A stretch of DNA of 64,000 nucleotides from an uncultured Gammaproteobacteria bacterium. Lineage in GTDB: Bacteria > Patescibacteriota > Microgenomatia > UBA10105 > UBA927. Below the pieces are notes generated by a model. It made no database searches, was not told the DNA's origin, and was given only the letters and a program-made list of their open reading frames with translations. The position numbers were made by a program, and so were the translations under genes. This document shows positions 5,506 to 50,523 of the stretch, in pieces (the stretch's first letter is position 1; each line of letters opens with the position of its first letter). The stretch covers positions 29,941 to 93,940 of the forward strand of contig CAZGOA010000003.1 of NCBI GenBank assembly GCA_964527425.1. The letters are read 5' to 3'.

Positions 5506-6704
5506 GAGAAGTACTAACAAATAATCCAAATACTGACTATATCTCATTATTGATACAAGACGCAAAAGACCGTCCAGACGATTATCCCTGCAATGGAGTA
5601 CAAGATTATACTCACGATCTTCGAACGATAGCGGCGTCTATGCTGGCAGATACAAGACTTGGTATTGAAATTGTTCCATACGGAAACACCATTAGAGTCA
5701 CAGTGCAACATAACTTAGTCGGTGAGATTGAGGATATTCCTGATATCAACACTGTTGATGCACTTATGACTATATTAAAGACCCATTATGCACCGGATCA
5801 TCTAAGAGGAGATTTTCATAAAACTGTAACTAATCGTTTACTCAGACAGACTCATTTACCACAGATTACTCGTACTGATATTACCAGTTTGGAGAGTGAA
5901 GAACATGCTATTGAAATGGACTATCTTCCAGACTACTTAACTCAACCTCATCGCTTACTCAATGCACTGTTTGTTCGAGTTGAGCAAACAGAAAATATAC
6001 CTGAAATTTGGAATCGTATTATCAGCCCAGACATTCTCAAAAAAGAGCCGGTTATCGCATTCAGACTTTATCAGTATGCGTATTATAATTCGTTCGATAC
6101 AATTATTTCAGACGGTGTGATTGGACAGGTTAAAATTACTCGGGCACTGTTATTTAGCATTATTGAACGCCTCGATCGAACCAATCCCATATATTCACCA
6201 GATATTCCTACAGCGCTTCACGCTGCGCAGTATATTCTGCGAAGTAAAAATTTTATGCACATGATGTTTGAATTAACACAGATACCAAATGGACATCTGA
6301 TTCCAGGCATCCAACATCCGCTATTACCGGACAATAGATGGCAATACTTTACCTCTAGTCTCCGTATATCTGATGGGGATATTGCGTTTACCGATCAGTA
6401 CCGTGAAGAATTGGATCGGAATATAAAAACACATAATAATCGTTCAGGTACTCTTCCTGACACTTTACGCAATAAGCCATATACAGTGTTAGAAGCTGCA
6501 ACTACGTCAGGTTGCCCACTCGGTCACGGAGCACCCAGTAAACAAACGTTTTCTGATGACAGAAATAACATCGCTTTTTTCCCAGATAAAGCACTAACAT
6601 CTGTAAACAAACACCCGATTATTAGCCTTAATGATACGTTAATTGACCTGATTGACATGGTAATCACTGATAAAGAACTTCAACAATCATTATTAGCATC
6701 ATAG
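5502..6704 (+). CDS. hypothetical protein, paralog B of a tandem pair (C-terminal TTSGCPLGH motif)
   Basis: 400 aa ORF translationally coupled to the upstream gene. Conserved block EAATTSGCPLGHGAPSKQTFSD. Confidence 0.5.
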   Translation: MREVLTNNPNTDYISLLIQDAKDRPDDYPCNGVQDYTHDLRTIAASMLADTRLGIEIVPYGNTIRVTVQHNLVGEIEDIPDINTVDALMTILKTHYAPDHLRGDFHKTVTNRLLRQTHLPQITRTDITSLESEEHAIEMDYLPDYLTQPHRLLNALFVRVEQTENIPEIWNRIISPDILKKEPVIAFRLYQYAYYNSFDTIISDGVIGQVKITRALLFSIIERLDRTNPIYSPDIPTALHAAQYILRSKNFMHMMFELTQIPNGHLIPGIQHPLLPDNRWQYFTSSLRISDGDIAFTDQYREELDRNIKTHNNRSGTLPDTLRNKPYTVLEAATTSGCPLGHGAPSKQTFSDDRNNIAFFPDKALTSVNKHPIISLNDTLIDLIDMVITDKELQQSLLAS

Positions 6705-7487: not shown

Positions 7488-8426
7488 TTACTTACGGTGA
7501 AACTTCTGATGAATATCTCGAAGTTGGGGGTTGGTGACATGGGTGTAAATTTGGGTAGTTGAAACGTTTTTGTGACCTAACATTTCTTGAATAGCACGTA
7601 AGTCTGCTCCATTGTGAAGTAAATCTGTAGCATAACTGTGTCTGAGTCCATGAGGAGTTATTTTGATGGGTAGTTTTGCCTTTTTTACATACTTTTCTAC
7701 CATTCTCTGAACGCTTCTGGCAGATAGTCTTAAGGATTCACCATCTTTATCATCCGGATCGGGGGTTGGTCCGTTATATCGAATAAATAAGGCCTTAGAA
7801 TCATCTCTTCTGTTTGAAAGATAACGAGTAACCCACTCAACAGCTGAATCTGATAAAAAGACAACTCGTGCCCTTCTTCCTTTTCCTATAACGCCAAATT
7901 CTTTCCGTTCAAAATTGATTTGATCTCTATTCAAACTCACTAATTCTGAAACACGAAGTCCTGTTGAGAACAATAATTCCAGTATCGCTTTATCTCTTAG
8001 TCCTTCTTCTTCTGATAGAGAAGGCATATTCAGCAGTCGATCAACATCACTTCGTTCTAAAAATTTTATACTTCTGCTTTCAGCTTTGGCTAGATCAATT
8101 TTCTCTGGATGGACTGTTTCGACATCCCGTTTCATCATATATTTAAGAAAAGATCTGACAGCTATTAAATGGTAATTTTGGGTAACTCTTTTTAAACTTA
8201 AGCCTTTTTCATCGACATAACGCGATAAAAATAATCGGTATTCACGAATCCGATCTGCTGTGAGATGACTAACCTGTAGTTGTTCGGGAGAGGAGGGGAG
8301 AGTCTGAGCTAAAAATCCTATAAGTCGAGATAAATAATGATGGTAATTACGAACGGTTAGTTGAGAAACATTTCGTTCAATTTCGAGGTATTCTAAAAAC
8401 TGTTTAACTGCTTCTGTTAATGGCAT
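7488..8426 (-). CDS. tyrosine site-specific recombinase, XerC/XerD family
   Basis: C-terminal catalytic box HGLRHSYATDLLHNGADLRAIQEMLGHKNVSTTQIYTHV (R..H..R..Y). Confidence 0.8.
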   Translation of the reverse strand: MPLTEAVKQFLEYLEIERNVSQLTVRNYHHYLSRLIGFLAQTLPSSPEQLQVSHLTADRIREYRLFLSRYVDEKGLSLKRVTQNYHLIAVRSFLKYMMKRDVETVHPEKIDLAKAESRSIKFLERSDVDRLLNMPSLSEEEGLRDKAILELLFSTGLRVSELVSLNRDQINFERKEFGVIGKGRRARVVFLSDSAVEWVTRYLSNRRDDSKALFIRYNGPTPDPDDKDGESLRLSARSVQRMVEKYVKKAKLPIKITPHGLRHSYATDLLHNGADLRAIQEMLGHKNVSTTQIYTHVTNPQLRDIHQKFHRK

Positions 8427-9097: not shown

Positions 9098-9296
9098 TCG
9101 ATCCCGGATGCAGACATTCATCCGATCCCGGATCGAGGTAAGATCTCCTTAAAGTTAGTTCATCTCGATCCGGGATGCAGACATTCGTCCGATCCCGGAT
9201 CGGAGTAAGATCTCCATAAAGTTAATTCATCTCGATCCGGGATGCAGACATTCGTCCGATCCCGGATCGGTAGCCTCTTCCGATCCCGGATCGGAA
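9098..9296. repeat. tandem array: 3 x ~65 bp units (39 nt hairpin module plus 26 nt near-identical linker) ending in the TAGCCTC plus module-2 palindrome
   Basis: TTCGATCCCGGATGCAGACATTCATCCGATCCCGGATCGAGGTAAGATCTCCTTAAAGTTAGTTCA, followed by TCTCGATCCGGGATGCAGACATTCGTCCGATCCCGGATCGGAGTAAGATCTCCATAAAGTTAATTCA, followed by a third copy, then TAGCCTCTTCCGATCCCGGATCGGAA. Confidence 0.85.
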
Positions 9297-10900: not shown

Positions 10901-11812
10901 ATGACTCTTGGTATTAAGGTTGGGCCTCAGAAACAAAGTTTTAATGATCTGGAGCTTACACAAGCTCCATTTTGTGAAGTTTGGTATAACATCTGTAAAA
11001 AAGATGATTACACTGATTTATTTGAGATTGTAAAACGTCGAAATATGGAGGTTGGTCTTCATTTCTGGGGGCATTTAGACGATCAGACCTGGACAAATAT
11101 TGCTTACCCCGATAGTCGTGTCATTTCTGAGTCAATGGCTTTAATGAAAGAAACAATCGACATTGCTGCGACGCATCATTTTCAATATGTAAATATTCAT
11201 CCGAGTAACTATGCCTTATCAAAAATAGATTTTGAAAAACAATCATTTGAACTGTTAACGCCACCTGCACCTGATTCTGTCTGTGAGCAAACCTTTTTTG
11301 AACATCTTACGGCACTCAATACGCATGCTCACAATCGTGGTGTTGTTTTACTTATTGAAACGGTTCCACATTTAGATACGAATGGCTGGCGTGGAACTAG
11401 TCCCAGACTTAGACCTATTAACTTATATGCACCTGACAATTCACTTATCGTGAAAGCCTCTACAATGGGTTTCACGATCGCAAATGACTTCGGGCATACC
11501 AGTTGTACTGTGCAATCTGATAACCGGTCTATTATTTGGCAGCATCTTAATCGTATGACTCATCAATTATTTAACCAAACTCGTTTACTGCATCTTGCAT
11601 ATATTATTCCGCCATATAATGGCACTGATTATCATTCACATCTTGATGCAGATCAGTTTGAATCAGAACTGGCAGTACCGAATAAACAGGAATTAATACA
11701 ACTCCTACATCTCTTTAAAGACCGATCTGATGTCTGGGCTTTAGTTGAACCTGATGGCAGACATGTAGAAAACTATTTCTATGCTAAGAAACTTCTTGAT
11801 TTGGTCGAATAA
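10901..11812 (+). CDS. sugar phosphate isomerase/epimerase-like TIM-barrel protein (xylose isomerase-like fold)
   Basis: GLHFWGHL...YVNIHP...VLLIETVP...DFGHT pattern of AP-endonuclease-2/xylose-isomerase-like TIM barrels. Confidence 0.45.
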   Translation: MTLGIKVGPQKQSFNDLELTQAPFCEVWYNICKKDDYTDLFEIVKRRNMEVGLHFWGHLDDQTWTNIAYPDSRVISESMALMKETIDIAATHHFQYVNIHPSNYALSKIDFEKQSFELLTPPAPDSVCEQTFFEHLTALNTHAHNRGVVLLIETVPHLDTNGWRGTSPRLRPINLYAPDNSLIVKASTMGFTIANDFGHTSCTVQSDNRSIIWQHLNRMTHQLFNQTRLLHLAYIIPPYNGTDYHSHLDADQFESELAVPNKQELIQLLHLFKDRSDVWALVEPDGRHVENYFYAKKLLDLVE

Positions 11813-21574: not shown

Positions 21575-21652
21575 TTCGATCCGGGATGCAGAAATACTTC
21601 CGATCCCGGATCGGGTGAGGCTACCGAAATTCTTCCGATCCGGGATCGGAAT
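21575..21652. repeat. composite repeat: hairpin module plus linker plus module-2 palindrome
   Basis: TTCGATCCGGGATGCAGAAATACTTCCGATCCCGGATCGG-GTGAGGCTACCGAAATT-CTTCCGATCCGGGATCGGAA. Overlaps the last ~11 codons of the minus-strand ORF 21621..22325. Confidence 0.8.
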
Positions 21653-22325
21653 ATTCTGGATGATTTATTCGATATTGTATTGCAGCTTGTTTCCCGATAT
21701 CTGTAAAAATTGATCTATATGCTTGTCTATGTTTTATGCGCTCAGGACGCGATATAGTGCTTGCTTGAGAGACAAGTGAGTCTTTTGTTGAGTCTAAAAT
21801 TCCATATAAATATTCTTTGACTCCATCTGTCGCATTATAAAAAGCAGGACTTCTATGACCTATTTTTTTATTCATAAATGGAATATACACAACATTATTG
21901 AGATTAAAGTGTCTTGCTAATTCATCAACTTTTTCTCTATTAAAACCTTGTGATTCAAATTCATCGATGACTACTATTGATTCACTCTTTGATACGTTTG
22001 TCGACCGAAGAAAATGTTCAATATCTCGAGGATTTAATTCCCCATCACGTTCTAGACTCATAAACTTCACTTGCGGCAATTTTCTTCCCAGTGAATCGGA
22101 TAAACTCTTTAGCATCCAATACACTGGACGTGCTGACCGGTCAAGAAAATAGAGTGTGTCGGGATTATGAGAGATGATCTTTTCATACAAACGAAGCAGC
22201 TGTTCCTGATACTGTTCTTTTTGCTTGGAAACAGATTCAAAAAAAACAGATAAATCTAGTTCTAACACTTCTGCACTTACTGTCTGATATTCTCCAGATC
22301 TATCCATATTTTTTATAAAAACCAT
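21621..22325 (-). CDS. hypothetical protein (weak phosphoribosyltransferase-like motif)
   Basis: SIVVIDEFESQG resembles a PRTase PRPP-binding loop. The last ~10 residues (...SDPGSEEFR) and the stop codon are encoded by repeat DNA. Confidence 0.35.
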   Translation of the reverse strand: MVFIKNMDRSGEYQTVSAEVLELDLSVFFESVSKQKEQYQEQLLRLYEKIISHNPDTLYFLDRSARPVYWMLKSLSDSLGRKLPQVKFMSLERDGELNPRDIEHFLRSTNVSKSESIVVIDEFESQGFNREKVDELARHFNLNNVVYIPFMNKKIGHRSPAFYNATDGVKEYLYGILDSTKDSLVSQASTISRPERIKHRQAYRSIFTDIGKQAAIQYRINHPEYSDPGSEEFR

Positions 22326-24482: not shown

Positions 24483-24518
24483 ATCGGGATGGAGACATCC
24501 GTTCCGATCCCGGATCGG
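24483..24518. repeat. degenerate solo hairpin module (ATCGGGATGGAGACATCCGTTCCGATCCCGGATCGG)
   Basis: Matches the repeat consensus. Lies between tRNA-Leu and dnaB. Confidence 0.7.
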
Positions 24519-24541
24519 TGGAATAATGTAGGTTGCGGGCG

Positions 24542-46954: not shown

Positions 46955-47021
46955 TTAGGAGTAAATCAGTTTCTGTATCATTTTTACTGTAGAAAAAGGA
47001 GGTTTAGAAGCAACAAAAACA

Positions 47022-47195
47022 ATAAGAGCGTGTGGTCCGTCTTCTTAGACGGAATACGAGGAAAGGGCCCCTATGGGGAATCGAACCCAAGATAAACTCT
47101 TGGAGAATCAGCGGAAACCCTTCGGTTGTAACGTACAATCGTGACAAATGACTAAAATCTTTCTGGTAACAGATTGGACAAAGGTTTTTTGAATA
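47022..47195 (+). ncRNA. structured 5' leader of glmS; candidate glmS ribozyme/riboswitch
   Basis: Five perfect or near-perfect hairpins (CCGUCU-ucuu-AGACGG, CCCC-uau-GGGG, GGG-aaucgaa-CCC, CCAAGA-uaaac-UCUUGG, GUUGUA-acg-UACAAU). ACGAGGAAAGGG plus the downstream CCCUUCGG resembles the glmS-ribozyme GACGAGGAGGAGG...CCUCC pseudoknot. GGACAAAGG resembles the conserved UGAACAAAG. Confidence 0.3.
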
Positions 47196-47322
47196 CGTTT
47201 GCTTCTTTATACTACTCATTACTACGATTTATCTTTAACGTATCTTGGAAGAATAATTGCTCAATTACTGCGTCCTAACATGAGGAATGTAATTATTCTG
47301 CAAGATACTCGACTTTACCTAT

Positions 47323-49101
47323 ATGTGTGGAATATTTGGATATGTTGGTCCTAAAACAAATGCTGCAAATGTAATCCTGAAAGGGTTGAAAACGCTTGAG
47401 TATAGAGGGTATGACTCCTGGGGTGTTGCTGTGGTTCCAAAAGACCCGAAAAAGCAGCATATTATGCTCAAAAAAAAGTCAGGGAAAATTGGTGATGCAA
47501 CGGTAACAGATTTGCCTGCTTCATCTTTTGGATTTGGCCATACTCGATGGGCTACGCATGGGGGTGTCACAGATGTAAATGCTCATCCTCATGTGGATTG
47601 TACGAAAAAAATCGCCATTATTCATAATGGAATCGTTGAAAATTATGAACAGCTAAAAGAAAAATTATCAAAAAAAGGTCATACATTTTCTTCTGAAACT
47701 GATACAGAAGTGATTGTCCACTTGATTGAGGAATATGCAAAAAAAACAATGTTTAGTAAAGCGGTACAAAAAGCCTTTAATGAATTGGTAGGATTAAATG
47801 CAATTATTGCTATTAATACTATTGACCAGGTTTTTGTTGCTGCGCGTAATGGATCCCCCTTGGTGATTGGATTTGGTGAGGATGAAAATTTTTTGGCGAG
47901 TGATGCTGCTGCAATTATTCCGTACACAAAGCAGGTTCACTACTTAGAAGATGGTGAAATGGCTCTGGTAGGAAAAAGTGGAGTTTCTATTTTTGAAGCC
48001 AAAACTGGCAAAAATATTCATCCGAAAAAACAACTCTTAACATGGACTGTTGCACAAGCAGAAAAAGGGAGATATCCATTTTTCATGTTAAAAGAAATTC
48101 ATGAACAACCTGGGATATTGGTTGATATAGCAACTAATAGTGTAAATCACGCAGAACATTTAGCCAATGCTATTAAACATTCATTTGGTGGATATTTAAT
48201 TGGCTGTGGGACTGCTGCTTTTGCATGTATTGCTGGCACATATTTATTTTCCAAAATTGCTAAGCGACATATGAACTGGGCTATAGGGAGTGAATTCCCC
48301 TATTCTCAAGATTTTTTGACGGGAAAAAGCTTAGTGATTGCTTTGTCTCAGTCAGGCGAAACCATGGACACCATTGAGGCTGTAAAGCAGGCTAAACAGA
48401 AAGGGGCAACCTTGGTTGCGATGGTAAATGTTTTGGGATCAACGCTGTACCGTATGGCGGATCACAAAATATTGCTTTCTGCTGGTCCAGAAAAAGGTGT
48501 TGCCTCTACAAAAGCGTTTACTGCCAAACTTGGTCATTTGTTATTACTTGCTACTGCGCTTGATAATAATGTCTCCTACGGAAAAACGTTAGTACTACAT
48601 GCGGCAAAAGCAACTCAAAAGATATTAAGAAAGGAGAATCGAGCAAAAATTGAGGAACTAGCTAACAAGATTATGAAGACTCCTCATATATATGTTGTAG
48701 GAAGGGGTCTTTCCTACCCTGCTTCTCTTGAAACAGCTCTGAAGATAAAAGAAATTTCTTATATTCATGCTGAAGGGTTAGCGGGTGGTGAGTTAAAACA
48801 TGGGGCTTTAGCGTTAGTTGAGAAAGGAACACCCTGTATTGTGATTGCACCACCTGATGAAACATATCAAGATACGCTGGCTGGGGCAATGGAAATGAAA
48901 GCGAGAGGTGGATATATTATTGGTCTTTCTAATAAACCACATGATGTGTTTGATTATTACTTACCTGTTCCGTATGTGCAGGAGGCAACTATTATTCCCA
49001 ATATTGTGACAGCACAATTATTGGCATATTACTTAACCATTCATAAAGGATTTGACCCTGATAAACCAAGGAATTTGGCTAAGAGTGTGACGGTAAAGTG
49101 A
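47323..49101 (+). CDS. glmS: glutamine--fructose-6-phosphate aminotransferase
   Basis: N-terminal MCGIFGYVG (Ntn Cys) followed by two SIS domains. Confidence 0.9.
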   Translation: MCGIFGYVGPKTNAANVILKGLKTLEYRGYDSWGVAVVPKDPKKQHIMLKKKSGKIGDATVTDLPASSFGFGHTRWATHGGVTDVNAHPHVDCTKKIAIIHNGIVENYEQLKEKLSKKGHTFSSETDTEVIVHLIEEYAKKTMFSKAVQKAFNELVGLNAIIAINTIDQVFVAARNGSPLVIGFGEDENFLASDAAAIIPYTKQVHYLEDGEMALVGKSGVSIFEAKTGKNIHPKKQLLTWTVAQAEKGRYPFFMLKEIHEQPGILVDIATNSVNHAEHLANAIKHSFGGYLIGCGTAAFACIAGTYLFSKIAKRHMNWAIGSEFPYSQDFLTGKSLVIALSQSGETMDTIEAVKQAKQKGATLVAMVNVLGSTLYRMADHKILLSAGPEKGVASTKAFTAKLGHLLLLATALDNNVSYGKTLVLHAAKATQKILRKENRAKIEELANKIMKTPHIYVVGRGLSYPASLETALKIKEISYIHAEGLAGGELKHGALALVEKGTPCIVIAPPDETYQDTLAGAMEMKARGGYIIGLSNKPHDVFDYYLPVPYVQEATIIPNIVTAQLLAYYLTIHKGFDPDKPRNLAKSVTVK

Positions 49102-49347
49102 GGATCTGTGCAGACAGTTTATCTTGATTAACCCGGTTTTTTTGTGTATTACGATCCGGGATGCAGACATTCGTCCGATCCCGGATCGGTGGAAGGATTA
49201 TCTGATAAACCAAGGAATTTGGCTAAAAGTGTGACGGTAAAGTGAAGATGTATAGGTACGGTTTATCTTGATTGTTCCGGTTTTTGATTATCACGATCCG
49301 GGATGCAGACATTCGTTGAGATTCAGGATCGGTAGCCTCAGCCTCTT
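49060..49347 (+). repeat. 2 x 144 bp tandem direct duplication of the glmS 3' end plus downstream hairpin module
   Basis: GATAAACCAAGGAATTTGGCTAA(G/A)AGTGTGACGGTAAAGTGA...TTTATCTTGATT...CGATCCGGGATGCAGACATTCG occurs twice, at 49060 and 49204. The second copy retains an out-of-context ...DKPRNLAKSVTVK stop remnant. Confidence 0.7.
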
Positions 49348-49368
49348 TCTTCCGATCCCGGATCGGAA
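49295..49368. repeat. hairpin module (degenerate right arm) plus TAGCCTC linker plus module-2 palindrome
   Basis: CGATCCGGGATGCAGACATTCGTTGAGATTCAGGATCGG-TAGCCTCAGCCTCTTT-CTTCCGATCCCGGATCGGAA. Confidence 0.8.
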
Positions 49369-49398
49369 TTTCTACGGGTTGGAATTTCTTCTAAAGAA

Positions 49399-49719
49399 TT
49401 ATAGTTGGCTTGCTTCTTCTTTGAGTGTTTGTAGGTCTTTTGCTCCTTCGTCATCTACGGTTGTATTTAACTCATTGAGCAATGTGTCTGCTGTGGCATC
49501 TCCTGTTAATGGAAGTGCAGAATTACTACTATCTGCAGTACCCGATGATGGCAAAGTTTTATCTGGTTTTGATCCAGTATTCCGCAAACTTGGTACCTGG
49601 TATGTTTTTTCTACAGCGGCTTTTGAAGATCCATACATAGAATGGTATGTTAGAACTCCGACAATAATAATCATAACTAAGGTAAGTACGATACCAATTA
49701 TTGTTCCCATGTTTTTCAT
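49399..49719 (-). CDS. hypothetical small membrane-anchored protein
   Basis: N-terminal TM helix then a low-complexity S/T-rich region. Confidence 0.4.
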   Translation of the reverse strand: MKNMGTIIGIVLTLVMIIIVGVLTYHSMYGSSKAAVEKTYQVPSLRNTGSKPDKTLPSSGTADSSNSALPLTGDATADTLLNELNTTVDDEGAKDLQTLKEEASQL

Positions 49720-49731
49720 AGATGTCCTCCT

Positions 49732-50523
49732 TTATTGCGTTGATTCAACAGCACTTGATGCAGACTTTCGGATACGGGCGATTGATTGAATAACGCTTGC
49801 TAGATCTTCTCTGGCCTTTTTTACTTTTTCCTGGGTGGCTTTGAGATCTGTTTCCAGTAGAGTTCTTACGCGTTCTACTGAATCTTTTAATTTATCTTCT
49901 GTGGTTACTCCGATAATATATTCTTTTCCTGCTTGTGTTGTAACGGCTGTTTTTGCAGCAGAGACTGAAACCTGAGCTGCTGATAAGGCTGTTTGAACTT
50001 GTGAAACATTTACGCCTTGAGCTGAGCGCTCAGAGAGAGTTTCTGAAATTTTCGTTATAACTTCTTCCATCTTGGCAACATGATTTGACATTGCTGTAGT
50101 TCTATTTGTGTTTACCGTACTAAACCGGTTATCAAGGTTTTCTACTATTTCTTTTTTACGTTCATCTTTTATTGTGTCCAGTCGATTTTGGAAATCTTCA
50201 CGGGCTTTGGTATATCGCTCTTTTGCCTGTTCTCTTTTTTCTTTTATTTGTTCATTAAGAAGTTCTTTTTTGGCTTTGTATTCTTCTTGAGTAGTTTTGC
50301 GAATTTGTTTTATAGCTTCTTTATTTTCTTTTCTCTCATTATTTTCTTTTCTATCTTTATTTTCATTTCTTTCTTTATTTTCTTTTCTATCTTCATCTAG
50401 ATCGTCTGATGACTTTTCTACTTCGAGGACTGCTTCTGTTTCATCTCCTAATACTGCAGGAGGCACTTGTGGCGTGCGGATTCCTAGACCGATTAATACA
50501 AGACCTAATAATTGTTCGAGCAT
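49732..50523 (-). CDS. hypothetical coiled-coil protein with (R/D)KENKE hexapeptide repeats
   Basis: DRKENKERNENKDRKENNERKENKE. The DNA shows 18-nt periodic repeats at ~50290-50400. Confidence 0.45.
   Translation of the reverse strand: MLEQLLGLVLIGLGIRTPQVPPAVLGDETEAVLEVEKSSDDLDEDRKENKERNENKDRKENNERKENKEAIKQIRKTTQEEYKAKKELLNEQIKEKREQAKERYTKAREDFQNRLDTIKDERKKEIVENLDNRFSTVNTNRTTAMSNHVAKMEEVITKISETLSERSAQGVNVSQVQTALSAAQVSVSAAKTAVTTQAGKEYIIGVTTEDKLKDSVERVRTLLETDLKATQEKVKKAREDLASVIQSIARIRKSASSAVESTQ

Follow-up and report, generated by a model that had tools for sequence, protein, structure and literature searches.

Integrative elements that enter the 3′ ends of genes regenerate the gene, as do the prophages and islands that tyrosine integrases place in tRNA and tmRNA genes. 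ICESt1 and its integrase-less CIME derivatives insert in the 3′ end of fda, and SCCmec, including the ccr-less pseudo-SCC elements, is associated with integration-site repeats at rlmH (orfX). The end of glmS is the target of TnsD, whose site extends over about 36 bp. In Tn7 and in CAST I-B, TnsD (attTn7) recognises the 3′-terminal part of glmS, which encodes the active site and was chosen for its conservation (PMC4046053, PMC10293859). A related example of gene-end integration is provided by the dusA-specific integrases (PMC4482086). The literature yielded no description of duplicated glmS tails, nor of glmS serving an integrase as its attachment site (attB), and very little is known about the entry of mobile DNA into the small genomes of CPR bacteria (Patescibacteria).

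Here, we compare with these systems a duplicated glmS end located in the window, that is, the whole 64-kb stretch of DNA that was analysed, from an uncultured bacterium of the Microgenomates (CPR). The window glmS (47323..49101, plus strand, from the ORF list and its translation) encodes 592 amino acids, starting with MCGI and ending with DKPRNLAKSVTVK and a stop codon. The Pfam domains GATase_6/7 and SIS were found on a protein identical to this GlmS, and the 5′ leader of the gene holds a glmS ribozyme (47016..47201, plus strand; Rfam RF00234, 54.8 bits against a gathering score of 37). A convergent gene downstream (49399..49719, minus strand), encoding a predicted membrane protein of 106 amino acids with no Pfam family, served as the anchor for strain comparisons. 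No intrinsic terminator was found downstream of glmS, Rfam at E ≤ 1 gave no match in 48950-49450 except one chance lncRNA hit, and the region 3′ of the gene folds no better than shuffled sequence (z −1.15).

Directly at the gene end lies a tandem direct repeat of 144 bases (49058-49201 and 49202-~49336), which carries a spare copy of the last 14 glmS codons. The 42-nt tail at 49060-49101, GATAAACC...AAAGTGA, is present a second time at 49204-49245 (plus strand), where it forms an orphan copy ending likewise in DKPRNLAKSVTVK and a stop; the two differ by a single synonymous mismatch (G49083 versus A49227), and 0.00 such matches are expected by chance from shuffles of the window. The orphan downstream of the real stop is thus present as the first-pass annotation had described it. 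By itself, the 144-bp repeat does not evidently alter the GlmS protein. The gene-proximal copy completes an intact glmS, and the direct repeats that include the gene's 3′ end flank extra DNA. A repeat search of the window returned 84 nt at 86% identity with a spacing of 144 and 36 nt at 92% with a spacing of 142, and the 144-base repeat was not among the repeats listed by TRF.

The copies are unevenly alike. The first copy of the gene end (49046..49101, plus strand) runs from codon −18 to the stop, its near-perfect part being 49058-49101, which matches 49202-45 at 43 of 44 positions. Further upstream, degenerate homology continues for about 14 nt, with AAGGATTTGACCCT at 49046-49059 facing AAGGATTA, a three-base gap and TCT at 49193-49203 (plus strand), the latter being the remains of codons −18 to −15 that abut the first hairpin. 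After the real stop follows a non-coding segment, X1 (49102..49151, plus strand), and after the orphan its counterpart X2 (49246..49293, plus strand), the resident downstream segment; over these roughly 50 nt, 36 of 46 aligned bases agree (78%), with six gap columns. X1 contains a block, GTTTATCTTGATT, that is identical in X2, and, in its most divergent block, TGCAGACA, which resembles the hairpin loop. Each copy then ends in a palindromic module, the two being identical at 36 of 42 positions (86%). The first, hp1 (49152..49195), is intact, consisting of CGATCCGGGAT-N15-ATCCCGGATCG with the flank GTGGAA, and the duplication junction coincides with its end, between GGATCGGTGGAA and GGATT. The second, hp2 (49294..49369), has an intact left arm and a degenerate first right arm (ATTCAGGATCG), beyond which lies another module whose right arm (49355-49365) is intact; the length of hp2 differs among strains. 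With these piecewise figures, the overall identity of the repeat is nearer 83-88% than the approximately 90% estimated in the first-pass annotation. The orphan tail is much better conserved than the adjoining DNA (Fisher p = 0.0003 and 0.001). Two further resemblances were set aside: a 15/18 inverted match of X1 to glmS 48866-48883 is at chance level, and a 13-nt match of X2 to the glmS codons for VFDY in many species has E ~0.75, with hits that are not independent.

The same structure is present outside this assembly. A Logan contig (L099, from SRR36604289) is 100% identical over 49035-50318 and spans all of it, and the junction together with the second copy is present in four further samples (L093, L096, L097, L100). 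This answers the concern, raised in the first-pass annotation, that the repeat might be an assembly artefact. Since the 31-mers across the junction are absent from any single-copy allele, the repeat is not a merger of two haplotypes either. Comparison of single and duplicated states among related genomes, also suggested there, was informative: a 99.3%-identical strain (L094) lacks exactly 144 nt, its join point falling within AGTGTGACGGTAAAGTGA and its single tail being followed by X2. Empty and filled sites (the latter in the window and L099) therefore exist within one species. As diagnostic joins, GGATCGGTGGAAGGATTATCTGATAAACC would mark the filled site, GCTAAGAGTGTGACGGTAAAGTGAAGATGTATAGG the empty site, and GCTAAAAGTGTGACGGTAAAGTGAGGATCTGTGC the reciprocal product, an excised circle or a triplication. 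The hairpin region 3′ of glmS varies among strains that are 98-99% identical. For example, L095 has a 34-nt tandem duplication there, L098 has a canonical hairpin where that of the window is degenerate, and L184 carries a hybrid allele, whose first block is common with X2 and whose middle block is common with X1. Eight short-read contigs (L001-L008) all stop in the hairpin, 80 nt past the glmS stop. No contigs of the same species were found in the JGI metagenomes, where the best match had 69% amino acid identity.

The palindrome hp1 belongs to a genome-wide family whose motif was hit 37 times in 64 kb, where 0.44 hits would be expected. Its hairpin (49152-49188) has an intact 11-bp stem and a DNA fold of −13.9 kcal/mol (z −3.8); that of the second copy is degenerate (−5.8 kcal/mol). 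The hp1 flank GGATCGGTGGAA recurs at 24513-24524. As a short imperfect palindrome with many intergenic copies and a stable hairpin, the family is REP/BIME-like, and, as in palindromes of that type, the units of CGATCCGGGAT-N15-ATCCCGGATCG are at times arrayed (9099-9293) and variable in copy number among strains. This family accounts for the position of the junction and for the local variability, but not for the recurrence of glmS orphans in other species.

Such orphans, extra same-strand glmS tails downstream of the real stop, were found in 8 of about 144 other Microgenomates loci, and these eight lack the hairpin family of the window. They lie close to the gene at +56 to +60 nt in L024, L041, L073 and L079 and at +55 in L115, or far from it at +713 in L057, about +930 in L048 and +1623 in L118, the last two being partial. 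Orphan-bearing loci are scattered over the GlmS tree, with sisters that have an empty site, and about 95% of the related species have no orphan tail. As a control, 1,468 ORFs of the same loci were searched for repeats of their C-termini within 3 kb. Seven of the 13 repeats belong to glmS, and the other six lie 600-2000 nt off and resemble tandem paralogues. Orphan C-termini at short range occur for glmS only in this set, which includes about 70 ORFs of the hairpin-rich window. The glmS end in Microgenomates looks like a recurrent recombination site, not the place of a one-off slip.

The inserts differ in size and content. Retropepsin-like protease cassettes (Pfam PF13650) lie between the tails of L057 and L048, and a ParB-like gene of 503 amino acids lies between those of L118. 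The mini-inserts of five species have a conserved junction motif, TTCGRKGTAAACC, in common. The left boundaries of the orphans vary from codon −19 to −8, and the repeat of the window runs about 100 nt beyond the stop codon, unlike those of the other eight loci. Most of the differences among the orphans of L024, L073 and L079 are synonymous, and each of the three has retained a stop codon. For L073 and L079, an empty-site relative (L051) allows the two tails to be told apart: its tail and downstream flank match their orphan (4-6 differences in 36 nt) better than their tails in use, which differ from L051 at 8-9 positions, against a background divergence of 13-14%. This resemblance indicates that the inserted DNA brought a new tail; judged by sequence similarity, the orphan in this clade is clearly native and the tail in use foreign.

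Several other readings of the mini-inserts were rejected. Stop-codon read-through into the orphan conflicts with a TAA at 49129 in the window, and as a general reading with the spacing, which is in frame in the window, L041, L073 and L079, and out of frame in L024, L115 and L057. An origin of the spacer motif TTCGGGGTAAACC from an internal glmS motif (DETFGANLAG) found a 13/14 match only in an unrelated species (L025); the carriers' own glmS genes are unmatched and the hit count is near chance. A conserved RNA structure in five homologous mini-inserts is not apparent, with a consensus of only −5 kcal/mol and essentially no covariation, and L079 and L115 have lost the pairing of the tail start with the spacer (CCCCGAAACC/GGTTCGGGG).

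Integrases adjoin glmS tails in more distant relatives. In CPR bacteria using code 25, two homologous tyrosine integrases each lie beside such a tail (L091, L186). On an IMG/VR contig of 37.6 kb, two tails of at least 55 nt, identical to each other, lie 36.2 kb apart and bracket a 36-kb provirus. The tail nearer to glmS has a tyrosine integrase (PF00589, E = 3e-22) at a distance of 120 nt; the glmS body on this contig is truncated and does not share the reading frame of the tail. A 39%-identical homologue of the integrase on this contig, P0006, is followed by RHLAKSVTVK and a stop in the same convergent arrangement. Phages also carry mimics of the glmS tail (L092, L188-L190), and a phage ORF family (92 amino acids) has a variable body and an invariant C-terminus, LYDPDKPRNLAKSVTV. 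On the viral contig L188, a Cys/His-rich ORF of 212 amino acids with no family hit lies between two tails. No integrase was found within 10 kb on the tail-bearing phage contigs. Near the window glmS, Pfam searches of −3/+7 kb (ten flanking ORFs) revealed no integrase, transposase or phage gene, and the sole tyrosine recombinase in the window is Xer-like (7488-8426). In about 150 Microgenomates loci, phmmer searches with two tyrosine recombinases found no integrase within 4-10 kb of glmS, a systematic screen that covered tyrosine recombinases.

Three known routes were considered for the window and rejected. Integration at Xer/dif sites (IMEX-like) appears not to fit, as the window glmS is not at a GC-skew extremum and the repeats are coding tails of 40-57 nt rather than 28-nt dif-like sites. 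A Tn7-like insertion is contradicted by the lack of Tn7 genes and ends and of transposase-type domains in the ten flanking ORFs, and by a repeat that is 144 nt long and begins inside the coding region. Integron cassettes with attC sites are at odds with repeats that are direct copies of a coding tail with no conserved folded structure, and with the lack of an intI-like gene near glmS.

Our tentative preference is to read the window repeat as an attL/attR-like, gene-less remnant of an insertion inside the glmS tail, by which the tail was replaced. Recombination inside the last ~12-19 codons would have produced the strain-polymorphic insertion or duplication of 144 bp, as one member of a class of events that is specific to glmS and recurs among CPR bacteria. 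The incoming DNA would join within the tail and supply a replacement tail and stop codon, so that the essential glmS stays intact, and the displaced tail would remain downstream as an orphan; the two tails, the replacement and the displaced one, would then be attL/attR-like direct repeats. The likeliest agent of the class would be Campbell-type site-specific integration by elements with tyrosine integrases, such as phages, with the glmS tail as attB. In the window only a CIME-like remnant without genes, X1 and the hairpin, would be left, later reshaped by the REP-like family, and recombination between the tails could delete it to give the single-copy allele. We infer such an integrase-type event, not a local slip, as the origin of the 144-bp unit. 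Recurrence in loci without the hairpin, specificity for glmS, the foreign tail of L073/L079 and the conserved orphan together indicate a process aimed at the glmS tail itself, in which case the hairpin family would be a bystander or a secondary remodeller. The insertion reading is also favoured by the cargo between tails, the integrases beside tails in relatives, the tail sites of phages, and the empty and filled sites within the species. The same four observations, including the eight hairpin-free loci and the tail conservation in the window, do not support the earlier proposal that this family is the main cause; its role in placing the junction and in the variability of the region among strains stands.

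Some features of the window point the other way. The repeat continues past the stop codon, X1 is homologous to the resident X2 and has one block in common with the conspecific L184, each copy includes a hairpin native to the species, and L184 combines features of X1 and X2, all of which is expected from local duplication. In addition, integrases beside tails are limited to the code-25 relatives, and the window and all Microgenomates cases are without one; the truncated glmS of the provirus contig, the variable left boundaries of the orphans and the tail-bearing phage contigs free of integrases within 10 kb also count against the insertion reading. The main rival, a local tandem duplication much as the first-pass annotation proposed, is in our view rather unlikely. 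Illegitimate recombination or replication slippage, with breakpoints at the hairpin end and about 18 codons before the glmS stop, would have copied a unit of 144-147 nt in situ, and patchy conversion by other repeat copies would later have made X1 and X2 differ. The head-to-tail arrangement of homologous X segments with hairpins of the same family, a junction exactly at the end of a module, and the tandem duplication and hairpin variants of L095, L098 and L184 agree with this, as do the L184 blocks, which match X2 and then X1 as if both descended from one conspecific sequence, and the loop-like TGCAGACA in the most divergent block of X1. It leaves unexplained, however, why only glmS has orphan C-termini among the 1,468 ORFs and why they recur in hairpin-free species. 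Simple slippage also predicts an even spread of divergence, and the observed 2% in the tail against 14-22% elsewhere calls for extra assumptions.

The X1 segment may alternatively be regarded as an allele of X2, imported with the glmS 3′ end of a related strain and its downstream DNA in a process that involves no site-specific recombinase and leaves a heteroallelic tandem repeat. We consider this decidedly improbable. Import could proceed by one-sided homologous recombination that is anchored in the conserved glmS and completed by illegitimate joining at the hairpin (homology-facilitated illegitimate recombination), or by homing of a free-standing endonuclease cassette that was later lost. A foreign tail in use beside a native orphan in L073/L079, the variable left boundaries, including the partial tails of L048 and L118, the lack of integrases at the Microgenomates loci examined, the Cys/His-rich ORF of L188 and the ParB-like nuclease-domain gene of L118 are in line with import. 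Against it, other, equally conserved genes in the same loci have no orphans, two homologous integrases adjoin tails, and the junction motif common to five species indicates a defined site rather than random joins. A second tail maintained by the host for a function, for example as a decoy attachment site or a 3′-UTR RNA element, is very improbable. The coding-like conservation of orphans across species and a spacer motif of 13-16 nt conserved in four to five species would fit, but there is neither a conserved RNA structure nor an Rfam match, terminator or stable fold in the window, a single-copy strain exists, and the great majority of related species do without an orphan. An artefact, by merging of two haplotypes or a repeat-induced misjoin, could be suspected from the short-read contigs that break in the hairpin and from the allele-like X1 and X2; with an identical independent assembly, the junction in four further samples and k-mers that a single-copy allele cannot yield, its probability is negligible.

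Should the glmS tail prove a preferred attachment site in CPR bacteria, a second PRNLAKSVTVK with its stop downstream of the gene would mark elements, remnants and phages in metagenomes, and the candidate integrases and att sites could extend the very small genetic toolkit of this group. In annotation, short ORFs that end in the GlmS tail should be treated as orphans and not as genes. A bolder proposal, which we think unlikely, is a dedicated recombination system in CPR bacteria and their phages, converging on the glmS tail that TnsD uses but joining inside it and swapping it. Possible footprints are gene-less 'tail-swap' mini-inserts of 55-144 nt with the conserved junction motif, perhaps mobile in trans or retained as decoy attachment sites, single-gene cassettes bracketed by glmS tails, and the phage protein family in which nothing is invariant except the C-terminal 15 residues of GlmS. 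This family could represent an attP site contained within an ORF, or could mimic the GlmS catalytic tail at the protein level.

Returning to the preferred reading of an insertion inside the tail, a close parallel is with integrative elements in gene 3′ ends. As there, direct repeats of the target gene's end flank inserted DNA, the proximal copy preserves an intact gene while the distal one is left as an orphan, empty and filled sites occur within one species, integrase-less remnants persist, and in relatives (L091, L186) an integrase lies beside the repeat. Unlike in those elements, the gene end concerned is that of glmS in CPR bacteria, over its last 12-19 codons, several inserts are gene-free and only 55-144 nt long, and the 'element' DNA of the window is homologous to the resident downstream DNA. 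The repeats of SCCmec at rlmH likewise include a conserved gene's 3′ end and stop and bracket cargo modules, some without their own recombinase, that can be stacked or lost. However, SCCmec relies on serine recombinases and repeats of 15-18 nt in staphylococci, whereas the repeats here measure 40-57 nt and the only linked recombinases are of the tyrosine type. With Tn7, the likeness is in the target, since TnsD recognises the same glmS segment that is duplicated here. Insertion of Tn7 takes place about 25 bp past the stop, generates a 5-bp target duplication and leaves the glmS tail unduplicated; here, the join lies inside the coding tail, which is replaced. If correct, this would add a second, independent instance in which mobile elements home to the segment encoding the GlmS catalytic tail, by replacement of the gene end rather than by insertion downstream of it.

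The glmS gene (47323-49101, +) encodes 592 aa, beginning with MCGI and ending with DKPRNLAKSVTVK at the stop codon, and is preceded by a glmS ribozyme (47016-47201). It converges with a gene for a 106-aa protein (49399-49719, -), for which no Pfam family was found. The 297-nt spacer between the two contains the duplication. The 42-nt glmS tail (49060-49101) is repeated at 49204-49245 with one mismatch, which is synonymous, against a chance expectation of 0.00 matches. The homology runs on past the tail through ~50 nt of non-coding DNA (X1, 49102-49151, after the real tail; X2, 49246-49293, after the orphan tail) and then into a palindromic module. The first module (hp1, 49152-49188) is intact, with an 11-bp stem (-13.9 kcal/mol as DNA, z -3.8), and the second (hp2, 49294-49336) has a degenerate right arm. 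Agreement between the two copies is uneven, at 43/44 positions in the tail, 36/46 aligned bases plus 6 gap columns in the X segment, and 36/42 positions in the hairpin; by Fisher's test the tail stands apart from X (p = 0.0003) and from X and hairpin combined (p = 0.001). Before the orphan, the glmS codons that precede the tail persist as a degenerate trace (49193-49203, AAGGATTA, three gap positions and TCT, versus AAGGATTTGACCCT at 49046-49059), which directly abuts the end of hp1.

The first-pass annotation had reported a tandem duplication carrying the glmS 3' end, and had asked whether misassembly or merged haplotypes could account for it. The duplication proved real. Short-read Logan contigs with an identical GlmS all end 80 nt past the stop codon, inside hp1, as is expected of a genome-wide repeat. 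Among contigs anchored on the downstream gene, L099 (SRR36604289) is 100% identical to 49035-50318 and spans the whole structure, and four others (L093, L096, L097, L100) reach hp1 from the downstream gene, crossing copy 2 and the junction. A single-copy allele has no such junction sequence (hairpin arm plus TGGAAGGATTATCTGATAAACC), so that haplotype merging cannot produce it, and we give an artefact practically no credence.

Single-copy and duplicated states, which the annotation had proposed to look for in relatives, both exist. L094 (SRR25316602), 99.3% identical over 2.9 kb, continues from glmS directly into X2, with exactly 144 nt missing. Its tail has the copy-1 variant (G), and the allele difference therefore maps to 18 nt (AGTGTGACGGTAAAGTGA) common to both tails. 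Among other strains, the hairpin region of L095 contains an extra 34-nt tandem duplication, L098 shows a canonical hairpin, and in L184 (97.9% identical) the first downstream segment starts X2-like and goes on X1-like. In a sister species (L185, 87.7% DNA identity), a hairpin of this family stands 23 nt past the stop. The nearest species representatives are Candidatus Gottesmanbacteria and Woesebacteria MAGs (Microgenomates, Patescibacteria/CPR), with a best match of only 76% aa identity. Further downstream, a 263-aa ORF of unassigned function (49732-50523, -) contains an 18-nt tandem repeat (50318-50393, 4.2 copies, 87% matches); L095 and L098 have a 275-aa version, hence the repeat number is polymorphic.

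The hairpins belong to a family similar in behavior to REP/BIME repeats. Its motif CGATCCGGGAT and complement occur 37 times in the 64 kb, versus 0.44 expected, and modules lie at ~9 intergenic sites. The junction flank GGATCGGTGGAA is also the flank of the module copy at 24513-24524, which identifies the junction as a module end. An array at 9099-9293 consists of four modules with a period of ~67 nt. The window's one gene for a tyrosine recombinase (7488-8426, -; Xer-like, PF00589, E = 2e-46) lies 0.7 kb away. The earlier remark that repeat DNA at 21621-21660 supplies the end of a coding sequence is borne out, by eye only: in the 234-aa ORF at 21621-22325 (-), the last ~10 codons and the stop lie within a hairpin-repeat module, giving an IFRSRIGRIS-like C-terminus.

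Second glmS tails are not confined to this genome. Translations in all frames were searched for the tail peptide, covering 80 glmS loci of GTDB species representatives and 80 of JGI metagenomes. In eight loci a second tail follows the real stop, in every case on the same strand. It lies at +56 nt in L024, +60 nt in L041 (40 nt, 100% identical), +57 nt in L073 and L079, +55 nt in L115, and +713 nt in L057, with partial tails at ~+930 nt in L048 and +1623 nt in L118. None of the eight has the window's hairpin family. They are scattered on the GlmS tree, with sisters that have no orphan. As a control, the last 11 residues of each ORF of at least 150 aa in the same loci (1,468 ORFs) were searched 3 kb downstream. 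Seven of the 13 matches were glmS; the other six were 600-2000 nt distant and ended complete ORFs, and thus look like tandem paralogues. Orphan C-termini at short range therefore characterize glmS, not genes generally, nor hairpin-adjacent genes, because ~70 window ORFs were in the control. The C-terminal residue itself has changed lineage-wide in the Microgenomates GlmS proteins of these CPR loci, from the usual VTVE of non-CPR bacterial matches (L077-L087) to VTVK, sometimes VTVR.

Three Microgenomates loci allow the resident tail to be told from the newcomer. Over 900 nt of glmS, L051, L073 and L079 are pairwise about equidistant (DNA divergence 13-14%, at third codon positions 32-35%). The single tail of L051 is followed by DNA orthologous to that after the L073 and L079 orphans. 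The L051 tail differs from these orphans at 4 and 6 of 36 positions, versus 8-9 differences from the tails in use. Between themselves, the tails in use show 2 differences, against 10-12 to the orphans. Since the L051 tail and downstream DNA match the orphans, the orphan is the resident tail, and the 57-nt insert consists of a replacement tail, stop codon and 21-nt spacer. A spacer motif, TTCGRKGTAAACC, is common to L024, L073, L079 and L115, and weaker in L041. The orphans of L024, L073, L079 and L115 all keep the reading frame and stop codon, and those of the first three differ pairwise mainly at synonymous sites (8:3, 7:2, 5:2). Such orphans would either have been coding until recently, through repeated insertions, or be under constraint. 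A host function of the second tail seems to us very improbable.

Where the tails are farther apart, the DNA between them encodes a 76-aa ORF and a 134-aa retropepsin-like protease (L057), a 118-aa retropepsin-like protease on the other strand (L048; both Pfam PF13650/PF13975) or a 503-aa ParB-like protein (L118; PHROG 1033, E = 9e-11). In the two protease cassettes (L057 3128-3725, L048 3503-4299), which run in opposite directions, one or two small ORFs accompany the aspartyl protease gene (PF13650; DTGA/DSGA motif); this could be a selfish module of two genes, or one resembling a toxin-antitoxin system. Screening the flanks of the Microgenomates glmS loci turned up no tyrosine recombinase at any of them. 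An alternative that we consider unlikely is import by homology-facilitated illegitimate recombination or homing, with no dedicated recombinase involved.

A scan of IMG/VR for the glmS tail returned several contigs. In L091 (37.6 kb, code 25, UGA = Gly) the tail occurs twice on the same strand, at a distance of 36.2 kb, and the two copies, each at least 55 nt long, are identical. A glmS body, which lacks ~65 codons and is out of frame with the tail, adjoins one of them. A 305-aa tyrosine integrase (768-1706, +; PF00589, E = 3e-22) ends 120 nt from the glmS-side tail (1825-1863, -), convergent with it. This integrase has few homologues overall, and P0006 (39% identity) is the only close one in a collection of 5.8 billion proteins. 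P0006 is encoded on the 2.2-kb contig L186 (1114-2025, +), beside a phage NinG gene. Convergent and ~60 nt past its stop lies a tail ending in SSRHLAKSVTVK and a stop codon (~2085-2127, -); no glmS body precedes this tail. Both of these related integrases thus have a glmS tail beside them. The 8-mer ATCGGTTC, present in the L073/L079 spacer (5777-5790; 1833-1846) and the L091 tail-integrase region (~1786-1793), and GATCGGT at the window junction (49184-49190), are probably shared by chance.

Other phage-like contigs carry the tail as the end of an ORF. L092 (93.7 kb; 10913-11191, -) and L188 (112 kb; 6332-6613, -) encode homologous ORFs of 92-93 aa (47% identity, E = 4e-32). Four more members are P0011-P0014; the family, which is also seen on L189 (10001-10297) and L190 (5937-6236), spans 92-115 aa. 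The bodies are only 35-47% identical, yet all end in LYDPDKPRNLAKSVTV followed by K, R, Q or S, with synonymous variation at the DNA level. The ORFs lie at a module boundary (Rad51/KaiC-type ATPase, DUF5131, capsid protein), with no integrase within 10 kb and no Pfam or PHROG family. They could be ORFs that contain an attP, or proteins that mimic the catalytic tail of GlmS. On L188, a 212-aa basic Cys/His-rich ORF (5651-6286, -), HNH-like by eye and without Pfam or PHROG match, lies between two GlmS-tail sequences, namely the diverged tail of the family ORF and a second tail that serves the 212-aa ORF as its C-terminus (ENLAKSVTVR and stop), and is thus a tail-flanked cassette within a phage genome. 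Separately, the IMG/VR contigs L103 (5570-7099, -) and L187 (1203-2828, +) encode GlmS-like proteins of ~510 aa, in ORFs of 509 and 542 aa, with RPR[NS]LAKSVTVK at the end. The two genes lie in clusters of apparent sugar-biosynthesis genes, as judged by eye from translations, and seem to be auxiliary metabolic genes rather than attachment sites.

The second-tail loci have a common anatomy. A join falls inside the last 8-19 glmS codons, glmS is completed by a replacement tail and stop codon, and 17 nt to 36 kb of other DNA then precede the displaced tail. Campbell-type integration into a gene 3' end has this same layout, and the integrase-tail pairs show tyrosine integrases as the likely makers of at least some of these structures. 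On both grounds we read the structure in the window as an attL/attR-like, gene-less remnant of targeted recombination in the glmS tail, tentatively, with somewhat less than an even chance of being right. Recombination between the two tails would delete the remnant and yield the L094 allele.

The first-pass annotation had instead invoked the hairpin family as a remodeler of gene 3' ends. In this form, as a duplication that arose locally at the hairpin and was later altered by patchy conversion, the idea is possible but doubtful. The species' own hairpin stands exactly at the junction, the repeat extends past the stop codon, unlike in the other eight cases, and X1 resembles a conspecific X2 allele, as the L184 mosaic indicates; local duplication explains these three features better than targeted recombination does. 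It accounts, however, neither for the glmS specificity seen in the 1,468-ORF control, nor for recurrence in other species, which lack the hairpin, nor for the uneven divergence along the unit. The hairpin mechanism of the first-pass annotation is thus supported in part.

The known events closest to the targeted recombination we favor are integrase-driven insertions at gene 3' ends that regenerate the gene, as with tRNA/tmRNA-targeting integrases, ICESt1/CIME in fda and SCCmec in rlmH. CIME elements are integrase-less, and the proposed remnant in the window resembles them in this respect. Tn7 and CAST I-B recognize the same glmS segment through TnsD, but insert downstream and do not duplicate the tail (PMC4046053, PMC10293859). 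A Tn7-like element at the window glmS was rejected, as no Tn7 features are present. Neither glmS-tail duplications nor a use of glmS as an integrase attachment site turned up in full-text literature searches. The cross-species pattern and the GlmS-tail phage family are more interesting than the 144-bp repeat itself, which is best filed as a new case, at glmS of CPR bacteria, among the known gene-end attachment-site repeats.
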